Below are positions 56,433 to 58,874 of a DNA stretch of 64,000 nt, piece by piece. The notes under the pieces were generated by a model. That model saw only the letters and a program-made list of their open reading frames with translations, was not told where the DNA came from and searched no databases. How positions within the stretch are numbered: position 1 is the stretch's first letter; the number at the start of each line of letters is the position of its first letter. This DNA comes from Dictyostelium discoideum (taxonomy: Eukaryota), in contig CM000151.3 of NCBI GenBank assembly GCA_000004695.1, positions 7,488,001-7,552,000 of the forward strand, in the 5' to 3' direction. Both the position numbers and the translations under genes were made by a program.

Positions 56433-58653
56433 TTATTTTTTAATTGGCTTTTGTACTGCACAAACTGAACAATTTTTATCTTTTTCATCATTATCAGTTT
56501 CACAGCATGGGCATCTCCATAAATCTTTTTTTTCTTCTTTTGGTTTTATAGTTGAACTACCAAATAAATTTGCAGTGTTTGTTGAAGAAGAAAATAATGA
56601 TTGTGGAGGTTGTGAGAATAAATTTGAACCATTTACAGGTGCTGAAAATAATGAATTAGTTTTTGGTGTTTCTTTTTTCTTTAATCTTGGTACCATACAG
56701 GTATCACAACTTTTTAATTTTGGGTCATTTTCATTTTCACAACTATTACATATCCATTTTTCATCTTTTTTTGTTGTTTTTGTTGTTGTTACTGCCGCTG
56801 TTGGTGTTGTTGATAATATTGGATTGGTTTTTTTTTTTTCTTCTTCATTTGGTTTACTGGAATTTGTTGAGGTTGTAGTTGAGGATGGTGGTGGTTTTGA
56901 GAATAAATTGGAGGCATTTGTTGGTGTTGTTGTGGTTGAAAATAATGATGGTGGTGGTTTAGAGAATAAATCTGAAGCGTTTGTTGGTGTTGTTGTAGTT
57001 GAAAATAATGATTGTGGTGGTTTGGAGAATAAATCTGAAGCATTTGATGTGTTGGTTGATGGTGTAGAAAATAATGATGCAGATGGTTTTGCAGAGAATA
57101 ATGATGCAGAATCAACTTTTGGTGGTACAACTGCTGATGCTGCAGTTGAATTTTGTTTTGGTCTTGGTACCATACAAACTGTACAAGTATTATCTTTATC
57201 ACTATGTTCAGTTTCACAACATGCACATTTCCATTTTGAATCTTCTGGTTTCTTCTTTAATCTTGGTACCATACAAACTGTACATGTATTTACCTTTTCG
57301 TCATGTTCAGCTTCACAACATGCACATTTCCATTTGGCTTCTTCTGGTTTCTTCTTTAATCTTGGTACCATGCAAACTGTACAAGTAGTAACTTTTTCAT
57401 CATGTTCAGCTTCACAACATGCACATTTCCATTTGGCTTCTTCTGATTTCTTCTTTAATCTTGGTACCATACAAACTGTACATGTATTTACCTTTTCGTC
57501 ATGTTCAGCTTCACAACATGCACATTTCCATTTGGTTTGATCTTGACTCTCTGTTTTCTTTTGTTCATTTGGTTTAATGGTAGTAGAGGTTGAAGGACCA
57601 AATAAGTTGGTTGTATTGATTGGAGTGTTTGATGAAAATAAAGATTGTGGTGGTTTTGAGAATAAATCTGAACTATTTGATGTTGTTGATGAAGTTGCTG
57701 TTGAAAATAATGATTGTGGTGGTTTAGAGAATAAATCTGAACTATTTGTTGTTGTTGTTGTTGTTGTTGTTGTTGATGAAGTTGCTGTTGAAAATAATGA
57801 TTGGGGTGGTTTAGAGAATAAATCTGAAGCACCATTAGTATTGGTGGTAGTAGTAGTATTTGCTGTTGAAAATAATGATTGTGGTGGTTTTGAGAATAAG
57901 TCTGAAGCACCATTAGTATTAGTAGTAGTATTTGCTGAGAACAATGATTGTGGTGGTTTTGAGAATAAATCGCCATTAGTAGTAGTAGTTGATGGTGCAG
58001 AAAATAATGATGCAGATGGTTTTGCAGAGAATAATGATGCAGAATCAACTTTTGGTGGTACAACTGCTGATGCTGTTGTTGAGTTTTTTTTTAGTCTTGG
58101 TACCATACAAACTGTACATGTATTTACCTTTTCATCATGTTCAGCTTCACAACATGCACATTTCCATTTTGAATCTTCTGGTTTCTTCTTTAATCTTGGT
58201 ACCATACAAACTGTACATGTATTTACCTTTTCGTCATGTTCAGCTTCACAACATGCACATTTCCATTTGGCTTCTTCTGGTTTCTTTTCTGTATTTGTAT
58301 TATTGTTGTTATTAATAGTATTAGTAGTATTATTTGCTAGGGCAGCTGGTTTTGAGAATGAAAATGATGCAAATGGATTCGTTGAAACTGGTGGCGATGT
58401 TGTGGTTGATGTTGCTATTGCTGGTGATGCAGCTGGTTTTGAGAATGAAAATGTTGCAAATGGATTTGTTGATACTGGTGGTATTGTTGTGGTTGATGTT
58501 GCTATTGCTGGTGATGCAGCTGGTTTTGAGAATGAAAATGTTGCAAATGGATTTGCTGTAACTGGTGGTGATGTGGTTGATACTGCTGGAGTTGGTGCTG
58601 GTACTGGTGCTGGTGTTTCTGCTGGTTTTGATCTTGGTTTTAATTTAAAAATT
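56433..58653 (-). CDS. RanBP2-type zinc-finger / FG-like-repeat nucleoporin-like protein, exon 2
   Basis: Acceptor 'aatag'. Three 'NPFATFSFSKPAAS' units. Then 8 RanBP2-type zinc fingers (W-K-C-A-C-C-E-A-E-H-D-E-K-V-N-T-C-T-V-C, i.e. W-x-C-x2-C-x3-N-x6-C-x2-C), each followed by MVPRLKKK. Interleaved 'DLFSKPPQSLFS', 'NLFG' and 'SLFSA' degenerate FG-type repeats. Stop at 56433. Total about 786 aa. Near-identical DNA repeats encode the fingers. Confidence 0.7.
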
Positions 58654-58734
58654 CTATTACATTCAATGATTTGGGGTTAGAAATATGCTCTTTTTAAATT
58701 AAATTAAATCATCAATGCTGTGGTTGTTACATAC

Positions 58735-58874
58735 TTTCTTGTTGATATTTCCTCTTTTGAAGCCCTTTCAAAAGTTGAACCATCTGAAAATGTCTTAATT
58801 CCAGTTTGTGGGTTATCATCATCATCATCATCTTCTTCAATGATATCCTCCCTTCTTCTATGATCACCTTCCAT
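58735..58874 (-). CDS. RanBP2-type zinc-finger / FG-like-repeat nucleoporin-like protein, exon 1
   Basis: ATG at 58874: MEGDHRRREDIIEEDDDDDDNPQTGIKTFSDGSTFERASKEEISTR. Donor GTATGT, phase 2. Confidence 0.55.

Follow-up and report, generated by a model that had tools for sequence, protein, structure and literature searches.

Nup50 of vertebrates and Nup2 of fungi are small, largely unstructured proteins that carry an N-terminal motif of the form TFxxASxEExxxRxIxKxKxR, followed by NPFxxFxF and by phenylalanine repeats in a disordered chain, and a C-terminal Ran-binding domain (RanBD). The N-terminal region binds importin-alpha and speeds the release of cargo, as reviewed in PMC13242641. A second described system, Nup153, has four zinc fingers of the RanBP2 class in a row, clustered in a disordered phenylalanine-repeat protein, and its fingers, like those of Nup358, bind Ran-GDP (bioRxiv 10.1101/2021.10.26.465790). 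For Dictyostelium discoideum, there is an in situ structure of the pore, with a flexible basket and phenylalanine-glycine (FG) components that lack assignment; the preprint on its nuclear pore complex (NPC) covers scaffold nucleoporins (Nups) only and mentions neither Nup50 nor Nup153 (bioRxiv 10.1101/2024.01.17.575985). Here, we describe a gene of D. discoideum AX4 that draws on the parts of these systems and lies on the minus strand of a 64-kb window (the whole stretch of DNA that was analyzed, 64,000 nucleotides of contig CM000151.3). The reading we favor, which we hold to be probable while granting it a good deal of doubt, is that the gene encodes a nucleoporin of the FG type or a transport cofactor, akin to Nup50/Nup2, with fingers of the RanBP2 class where the C-terminal RanBD would be, and that it is an expressed-type, selectively maintained gene.

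Architecture of the protein

The main parts of the gene are as follows; repeat periods and match percentages are from Tandem Repeats Finder (TRF).

56433..58874, minus strand: whole gene, start to stop codon, 2442 nt, 786-aa product
58533..58787, minus strand: NUP50-family segment, TFSDGSTFERASKEEISTRKIFKLKPR ... NPFATFSF, aa 30-87, split by the intron
58342..58602, minus strand: three NPFA(T/S)FSFSKPAA(S/L) units, protein residues 81-151, TRF period 87, 92% matches
58083..58286, minus strand: finger array A, fingers 1 and 2 (cores 58206-58265 and 58107-58166), 99-nt units
57597..58043, minus strand: linker 1, with two SASLFS, five DLFSKPPQSLFS units (63-78-nt periods), and one NLFG
57162..57535, minus strand: finger array B, fingers 3-6, 99-nt units, TRF 3.8 copies, 91% matches, variable in copy number
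57471-57530, 57372-57431, 57273-57332, and 57174-57233, minus strand: cores of array B fingers 3, 4, 5, and 6
56883..57110, minus strand: linker 2, with two SASLFS and three (D/N)LFSKPP(Q/P)S units
56697..56756, minus strand: finger 7, WICNSCENENDPKLKSCDTC, with the canonical Asn signature
56559..56654, minus strand: linker 3, with SLFS, NLFSQPPQSLFS, and NLFG
56460..56519, minus strand: finger 8, WRCPCCETDNDEKDKNCSVC, ending seven residues short of the C-terminus

The protein contains eight W-x-C-x2-C-x10-C-x2-C fingers, and no others are found in the six frames of the window. A sequence-only reading of this locus had already named the parts, namely the eight fingers, MVPRLKKK(P/S)E linkers, DLFSKPPQSLFS and NLFG repeats, and three NPFA(T/S)FSFSKPAA units, and all of these are present, NLFG twice. 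It had placed the fingers in one tandem run; they are in fact laid out as 2 + 4 + 1 + 1, with LFS-repeat linkers between the groups. Nor is their number unusually high, as had been thought, for human NUP358 also has eight (bioRxiv 10.1101/2021.10.26.465790). The repeating DNA unit, put earlier at about 170 bp, is 99 bp long and encodes 33 aa (TRF period 99, 3.8 and 2.1 copies, 91-93% matches). The further claim that these units are over 90% identical is partly correct for fingers 1-5, which share 87-100% of their nucleotides, with units 1 and 5 identical at 99/99 nt; it does not extend to finger 6, at 80-89% to fingers 1-5, or to fingers 7 and 8, at 62-72% to the other fingers. In a repeat-family comparison, the three 87-nt NPF units show 93% and 80% identity.

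Between the fingers, the chain is dominated by LFS motifs. There are nine (D/N)LFS(K/Q)PP(Q/P)S(LFS) units, in addition to the SASLFS pairs and the two NLFG, and of 36 Phe residues, 22 lie in LFS, 2 in LFG, and 3 in FSFS units. Full-length AlphaFold modeling with three ortholog rows was confident only at the fingers and at a 5-residue helix (aa 40-44), and pLDDT (predicted local distance difference test score) was below 50 in 609/786 residues. Linker 1, for example, is a Thr/Ser/Asn-rich chain with pLDDT <50 and predicted disorder. Fingers 4-5 were also of low confidence in this model, probably owing to the shallow alignment. The predicted structure is, therefore, one of small beads strung on a disordered chain rich in Thr, Ser, Lys, and Pro.

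A borderline NUP50-family N-terminus

The strongest pointer to the nuclear pore is a NUP50-family N-terminus that went unnoticed in the earlier reading and that, judged by profile and alignment, is borderline in D. discoideum and clear in Polysphondylium. In the whole protein, no Pfam family other than NUP50 (PF08911) is detected at E<=1; it scores 20.5-22.4 bits versus a cutoff of 22.5 bits, with E-values of 2e-4 to 7e-4, and the match covers profile positions 23-69 of 71. The Polysphondylium violaceum ortholog P0002, whose N-terminus is 54% identical to that of the D. discoideum protein, reaches 39.8 bits over profile positions 1-69 and also passes Nucleoporin_FG at 48.3 bits. In the alignment of Neumann et al. 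2010 (PMC2951903), the animal Nup50 motif reads MAKRxAEKELTDRNWDxEDE...TFSxASEEVxKNRAxKKAKRR. The second half of this published motif is well matched by the Dictyostelium segment containing TFSDGSTFERASKEEISTRKIFKLKPR, and Polysphondylium shows the first half clearly (KKKRVMGDQLTKDNYEEEEED). Searches of the PDB with the N-terminal profile or with the P. violaceum N-terminus returned no Nup50/Nup2 match, so the NUP50 assignment is based on Pfam and the published alignment.

Relatives of the protein retain the same order of parts. A phmmer search against 1.84 billion representatives gave 39 matches (best, 132 bits), and the best relatives are two dictyostelid proteins, Synstelium polycarpum P0001 (522 aa) and P. 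violaceum P0002 (487 aa). Both have a NUP50-type N-terminus, NPFxxFSF, and WKCxCCExxN fingers alternating with phenylalanine repeats, and both end in or near a finger. They differ from the D. discoideum protein in having 3-4 fingers, all with the canonical Asn, and canonical SLFGG or GFQF repeats. With regard to Nup50 and Nup2 themselves, the borderline N-terminal motif, the NPFxxFxF that follows, and the disordered chain with its phenylalanine repeats resemble theirs, as does the small size of the protein. The distinguishing feature is at the other end, where eight RanBP2-type fingers stand in place of the C-terminal RanBD: no RanBD was found in the Pfam scan of the whole protein at E<=1, and full-length AlphaFold predicts no folded C-terminal domain, the chain stopping seven residues past finger 8.

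Zinc fingers of the RanBP2/NZF class

RanBP2 fingers are described by the signature W-x-C-x(2,4)-C-x3-N-x6-C-x2-C (PMC12383448, PMC7154859). All eight fingers have the Trp and the four Cys with W-x-C-x2-C-x10-C-x2-C spacing. The signature Asn, four residues after the second Cys, occurs in fingers 7 and 8 only; fingers 1-6 have His there, and this His-for-Asn substitution is fixed in the internal fingers across all eight Dictyostelium assemblies that were compared. Because Pfam scans gave only sub-threshold matches, the class assignment was taken from family profiles.

A finger-family profile, built from 32 distinct fingers of the D. discoideum protein and its six detectable relatives, was searched against all PDB sequences. 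At E 5e-60, the best match by far was chain 00 of D. discoideum entry 9hcj (3566 aa, labeled "RanBP2-type zinc finger"). From its length, its domain content, and the NPC preprint, in which "Nup358 (aa 1-780)" is modeled, we infer this chain to be D. discoideum Nup358 (bioRxiv 10.1101/2024.01.17.575985). The next matches were Xenopus Nup358 (1.6e-5), Nup153 fingers (5e-5 and 1.4e-4), and the HOIP NZF (1.5e-4), followed by TRABID, human RanBP2, Npl4, and RYBP. The full-length protein likewise finds D. discoideum Nup358 as its best PDB match (E 1e-24). Aligned with hhalign to ten Ran-binding Nup153/Nup358 fingers, the family gave a probability of 96% and an E-value of 4e-9. For finger 5, AlphaFold modeling that used the family alignment gave a pLDDT of 91 in the core. 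The RanBP2/NZF fold is defined by two orthogonal hairpins around one zinc, and the first 45 PDB matches of the finger model in Foldseek are nearly all RanBP2/NZF, many at a root mean square deviation of 0.5-0.7 Å over 24-26 residues, with E-values of 0.2-2 that are not significant, the domain being so short. No rival zinc-ribbon class emerged in the profile and fold searches, and rubredoxin-type knuckles score only above E 0.05. As judged by profile and modeled fold, the fingers are of the RanBP2/NZF class, nearest to nucleoporin fingers, with those of D. discoideum Nup358 as their closest kin. The earlier description of a nucleoporin-like protein with RanBP2-class fingers and FG-like repeats is, thus, supported by the finger profile, by hhalign, and by superposition of the AlphaFold model.

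Kinship with Nup358 suggests a different explanation, in which the gene would have branched off as a paralog of the Nup358 finger/FG region; its product, rather than residing in the nuclear basket, would either act on the cytoplasmic side of the pore or be a soluble protein of the cytoplasm or nucleus. Of solved structures, D. discoideum Nup358 lies closest to the fingers and also to the linkers, which are similarly Thr/Ser-rich and phenylalanine repeated; no known finger sequences are closer than its WKCLCCETENSEKEKSCSVCMVP units, which fingers 7 and 8 resemble and which share the Glu after the second Cys. However, a NUP50-type N-terminus is typical of nuclear-face Nup50/Nup2 (PMC13242641), and neither the N-terminal alpha-solenoid of Nup358 nor its RanBDs nor an oligomerization element was detected by Pfam or AlphaFold. 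Also, the two proteins differ in length (786 versus 3566 aa), in the N-terminal scaffold domain, which is missing here, in the linker motif (LFS rather than LFG/IFG), and in the His for Asn of six fingers. We regard such a Nup358 offshoot, at work outside the basket, as decidedly improbable.

Nup153 offers the other comparison for the finger region. Both proteins have a cluster of RanBP2-class C4 fingers in a disordered phenylalanine-repeat chain, and their finger folds superpose at 0.6-0.7 Å. It could be argued from this organization that the gene encodes the functional equivalent of Nup153, anchoring the nuclear basket, and not a mobile cofactor of the Nup50/Nup2 type; the NUP50-like motif would then be an added handle for importin-alpha. 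The slot is free, since the Nup153 alignment of Neumann et al. 2010 contains no D. discoideum sequence. Moreover, Mastigamoeba balamuthi P0006, a longer FG protein (1269 aa), joins a long N-terminal region and FG repeats to three fingers of like type. Nevertheless, the N-terminus points to the NUP50 family, the sole Pfam match at E<=1, if a borderline one; that scan detected no Nup153 N-terminal targeting domain or other anchoring region. Predictions also show neither an amphipathic helix nor a region for coiled-coil binding, the only helix in the N-terminal 170 aa being that of five residues. The grouping of the fingers also departs from the uninterrupted row of Nup153. An anchoring Nup153 equivalent, thus, appears unlikely, and we continue with a cofactor of the Nup50/Nup2 kind as the preferred reading.

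Proposed function

Beyond the anatomy of the protein, every functional step is drawn by analogy with Nup50/Nup2, Nup153, and Nup358. At the nuclear face, the N-terminal motif (a basic cluster plus TFxRASxEExxxRKIFKLKPR) would dock importin-alpha and help to release cargo bearing a nuclear localization signal. The approximately 27 Phe motifs (LFS, FSFS, and LFG) in the Thr/Ser-rich linkers may bind transport receptors and let the protein dwell at the pore. The eight fingers would provide multivalent docking for a small partner, for which Ran-GDP is the default candidate, on the example of Nup153 and Nup358. If Ran is the ligand, then the fingers might supply the contact with Ran that the RanBD gives to canonical Nup50.

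Taken strictly, the protein is not a Nup50 (it has no RanBD) or a Nup153 (it has no targeting domain, and its contacts are noncanonical), and with His for Asn, it fails the Pfam RanBP2 finger model. Despite this, it is clearly built from the same parts list as Nup50, Nup153, and Nup358.

Evidence against the preferred reading

A number of observations weigh against a Nup50/Nup2-type cofactor. First, the D. discoideum protein misses the PF08911 cutoff by 0.1 bit, and the first half of the motif (M-A-K-R-x-A-x-x-x-L-T-x-x-N-W-D) is, unlike in Nup50 and Nup2, degenerate in Dictyostelium (group 4), where it is reduced to HRRRED and an acidic run. Second, confirmation of the fingers by Pfam, which had been proposed as a check, did not succeed: the whole-protein scan gives no zinc-finger match at E<=1; finger 7 alone matches PF00641 at 20.9 bits and E 2e-4, under the 27-bit cutoff; and fingers 1-6 and 8, scanned singly, have no match at E<=10. 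The failure is ascribed to the His that fingers 1-6 carry at the Asn position. Third, among approximately 24 LFS/LFG motifs, 22 are LFS and only 2 are true FG, where Nup50 and Nup2 have FG/FxFG repeats, and the Pfam scan of the D. discoideum protein found no match to Nucleoporin_FG.

Also, the name Nup50 is already in use. Supplementary file 52 of Neumann et al. 2010 (PMC2951903) includes "nup50_dictyostelium," a different protein chosen for its RanBD-like C terminus, so that the present gene may not be "the" ortholog. The N-terminus of that entry (MNFDFLYKSIIEEVRTIFFFFFFFF...) has no NUP50 motif and resembles poly-Phe mispredicted from a T-run. We considered whether the present gene had been assigned in that study and rejected the idea: six 6-mers and six 5-mers of its product are absent from the Nup50 and Nup153 alignment files, and "nup50_dictyostelium" is another protein. 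D. discoideum may, then, have the Nup50 head and the RanBD on separate proteins. Finally, a literature search found no paper describing the protein or its localization, expression, or binding.

Candidate ligands of the fingers

A further objection concerns Ran. In each of the eight fingers, the second Cys is followed directly by Glu-Ala, Glu-Thr, or Glu-Asn, and the same Glu is found in D. discoideum Nup358 and in all protist relatives. Every Ran-bound finger in the PDB has Leu, Cys, or Tyr, followed by Val, Leu, or Ala, at these positions. The two positions are said to be key Ran contacts, as Higa et al. reportedly found in 2007. The finger is described as meeting Ran through a hydrophobic, flat surface, and Ran binding is lost in a human finger whose contact sites are variant (Bley et al., bioRxiv 10.1101/2021.10.26.465790). 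Since Glu-Ala/Thr/Asn replaces the hydrophobic pair of Ran-bound fingers, residue comparison makes Ran binding doubtful, and it is the weakest step of the reading that we prefer. The sequence-only reading had implied binding of both Ran-GDP and ubiquitin, and neither is supported at the level of contact residues.

The protein could also be conceived of as a ubiquitin adaptor with ubiquitin-binding fingers of the NZF type, given that the NZF fingers of HOIP, TRABID, TAB2/3, and Npl4 are among the profile and fold matches. Ubiquitin-binding NZFs, however, need Thr-Phe right after the second Cys and a hydrophobic residue downstream (PMC12383448). Because this Thr-Phe pair is absent from 8/8 fingers, which have Glu-Ala/Thr/Asn instead, ubiquitin binding is unlikely, and a role as an adaptor of this kind seems to us very improbable.

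Fingers of ZRANB2, FUS, RBM5, and RBM10 occur among the weaker matches, which raises the idea of single-stranded-RNA binding in the manner of ZRANB2/FUS. RNA binders of that type use aromatic and Arg positions after the Asn, and such positions are absent from the present fingers. The finger cores are, moreover, strongly acidic, with four Asp/Glu versus two Lys in WKCACCEAEHDEKVNTCTVC, and nucleoporin fingers score better with the finger profile. RNA binding by such acidic fingers, thus, looks unlikely from composition, and we consider single-stranded-RNA binders the least credible of the explanations weighed here.

These considerations leave room for a broader proposal, to which we give limited credence. 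In dictyostelids, and perhaps in Amoebozoa, the importin-alpha-release module of Nup50/Nup2 might have been fused to a finger/phenylalanine-repeat module like that of Nup153, with the RanBD being dropped. The fingers would then form an acidic subclass (W-K-C-x-C-C-E-x-E-[N/H]) shared with Nup358; their ligand would be something other than the hydrophobic switch surface of Ran, ubiquitin, or RNA, or Ran would be bound in a new way, and valency would be tuned by unequal recombination.

Conservation and copy number

Finger number can be compared between strains by synteny. Neither the D. discoideum protein nor D. discoideum Nup358 is in the libraries of 1.84 billion representatives or 5.8 billion clusters, and strain variants were, therefore, sought via the neighboring TRAP1 gene. 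The resulting set consists of eight assemblies: three of D. discoideum, two of D. cf. discoideum, two of D. citrinum, and one of D. dimigraforme. In all eight, the gene is flanked by TRAP1 and by a DUF7035/ComC_SSD gene, and its open reading frame (ORF) is intact. When the gene is modeled uniformly in the eight, product lengths are 786, 725, 726, 748, 758, 739, 772, and 683 aa, and the finger counts, in matching order, are 8, 7, 7, 8, 8, 7, 8, and 6, which bears out the suggestion that the recombination-prone array varies in copy number.

Gains and losses are in register and involve exact 33-aa finger units, with 4, 3, or 2 in the middle array, and LFS units of 23-29 aa; across the eight assemblies, no gain or loss affects the first finger pair or fingers 7 and 8. 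The same 7-finger allele recurs in two D. discoideum assemblies that are independent of each other, and the D. citrinum pair is not alike, which makes assembly error unlikely. The arrays probably evolve by unequal crossing-over or gene conversion among the 99-nt finger units and the 63-87-nt phenylalanine-motif units. A 300-nt segment is present in two copies within the gene, as a higher-order duplication:

57041..57340, minus strand: copy 1, fingers 5-6 and the start of linker 2
57974-58273, minus strand: copy 2, fingers 1-2 and the start of linker 1, 93% identical to copy 1

The fingers are under purifying selection. Measured against D. citrinum and D. dimigraforme, the nonsynonymous substitution rate (dN) in the fingers is 0-0.05 versus a synonymous rate (dS) of 0.15-0.7. 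Seven of the eight assemblies share an unchanged 20-residue finger 7 core, the other having a single I to V change, and over a 34-codon block around this finger, dN is 0-0.012 and dS is up to 0.45. We rejected the view that the locus is a pseudogene or a low-complexity ORF arising at random, since all 8 assemblies keep the frame intact and dN is far below dS.

The gene can, then, be put forward concretely as a candidate for the zinc-finger/FG component missing from the nuclear face of the Dictyostelium pore, and it suggests that a Nup50 head can combine with fingers instead of a RanBD. It also presents natural variants under purifying selection, namely His at the finger signature, Glu at the Ran-contact position, and LFS in place of FG, all readily tested in this genetically tractable amoeba, and the polymorphism of 6-8 fingers is a natural series for studying the role of finger valency. 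Current understanding is not overturned; a gap in the Dictyostelium pore inventory would be filled.

Several side observations come from the searches for relatives. Unnamed protist proteins share the WKCxCCExEN finger. P0003, P0004, P0005, P0017, and P0021 (unnamed protist or metagenome proteins) form a separate group with a WKCxCCEAEN-type finger, a repeated N-terminal (D/S)VVLSPAHK(S/T)(V/I)AxRFF, GFSM-type repeats, and a WKCxTCDWxN finger at the end. A word-indexed homolog search with the full-length query gave six useful matches; with the N-terminal 268 aa or with a concatenate stripped of low-complexity sequence, it gave none, presumably because of candidate saturation or bias filtering. 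The absence of both repetitive, biased D. discoideum proteins from the libraries is, in turn, probably an artifact of the library or its filters.

Gene model and neighborhood

The interval proposed for the gene in the sequence-only reading runs exactly from the stop codon to the start codon of a minus-strand gene, and the short acidic N-terminal exon proposed there is also real. The gene is composed of two exons:

58735..58874, minus strand: exon 1, 140 nt, coding for the acidic N-terminus MEGDHRRREDIIEEDDDDDD... and for the initial part of the NUP50-like motif
58654..58734, minus strand: intron, 81 nt, GTATGT...TAG, 27% GC
56433..58653, minus strand: exon 2, 2221 nt, including the stop codon at 56433-56435

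Splicing of exon 1 (ATG at 58874) to exon 2 gives 786 codons and a stop. The junction is supported by an unbroken alignment to the P. violaceum ortholog (EEISTRK|IFKLKPR versus EELAKRRIVKLKPR) and by an intron of 81-118 nt at the matching position in 8/8 Dictyostelium orthologs. The DNA of GCA_054883475.1 is 100% identical over all 2442 nt, and an independent public annotation there has a 786-aa product over the same span. In public annotations, the gene is a hypothetical protein with no Pfam match on record. Exons have a GC content of 34-35%, and the flanking spacers have one of 13-15%.

Downstream, an ORF at 53980..56115 on the plus strand matches exactly the D. discoideum AX4 TRAP1 homolog, XP_642968.1. 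TRAP1, the mitochondrial Hsp90, is convergent with the zinc-finger gene, and a 317-bp spacer (56116..56432, 13% GC) separates the two stop codons. With the TRAP1 stop only 317 bp away, there is no room for a missing 3' exon. On the 5' side, the intergenic region at 58875..59250 contains an A27 run, a T43 run, and short AT-rich tandem repeats, and the next upstream gene, on the minus strand from ~59280, has DUF7035, DUF7034, and ComC_SSD Pfam matches in the public annotation.

Two antisense ORFs, 56575..57540 (321 aa) and 57577..58680 (367 aa), traverse the gene on the plus strand. We rejected them as genes, as they look like by-products of repeats and codon usage; their length is explained by the fact that the antisense of GAA/AAA/ACA-rich repeats lacks stop codons.

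Public models of the orthologs are inconsistent. In the GCA_054859385.1 model, a 102-nt intron removes the conserved IFKLKPR, and both D. citrinum models have an extra 5-nt first exon and an additional intron, 5' of the conserved MEGDHRRRED start. These models lie at L008 8572-10830, L007 8222-10654, and L013 8222-10760. Finally, Logan contigs L002-L006 (~2.4 kb) hold TRAP1 alone and resemble transcript assemblies.

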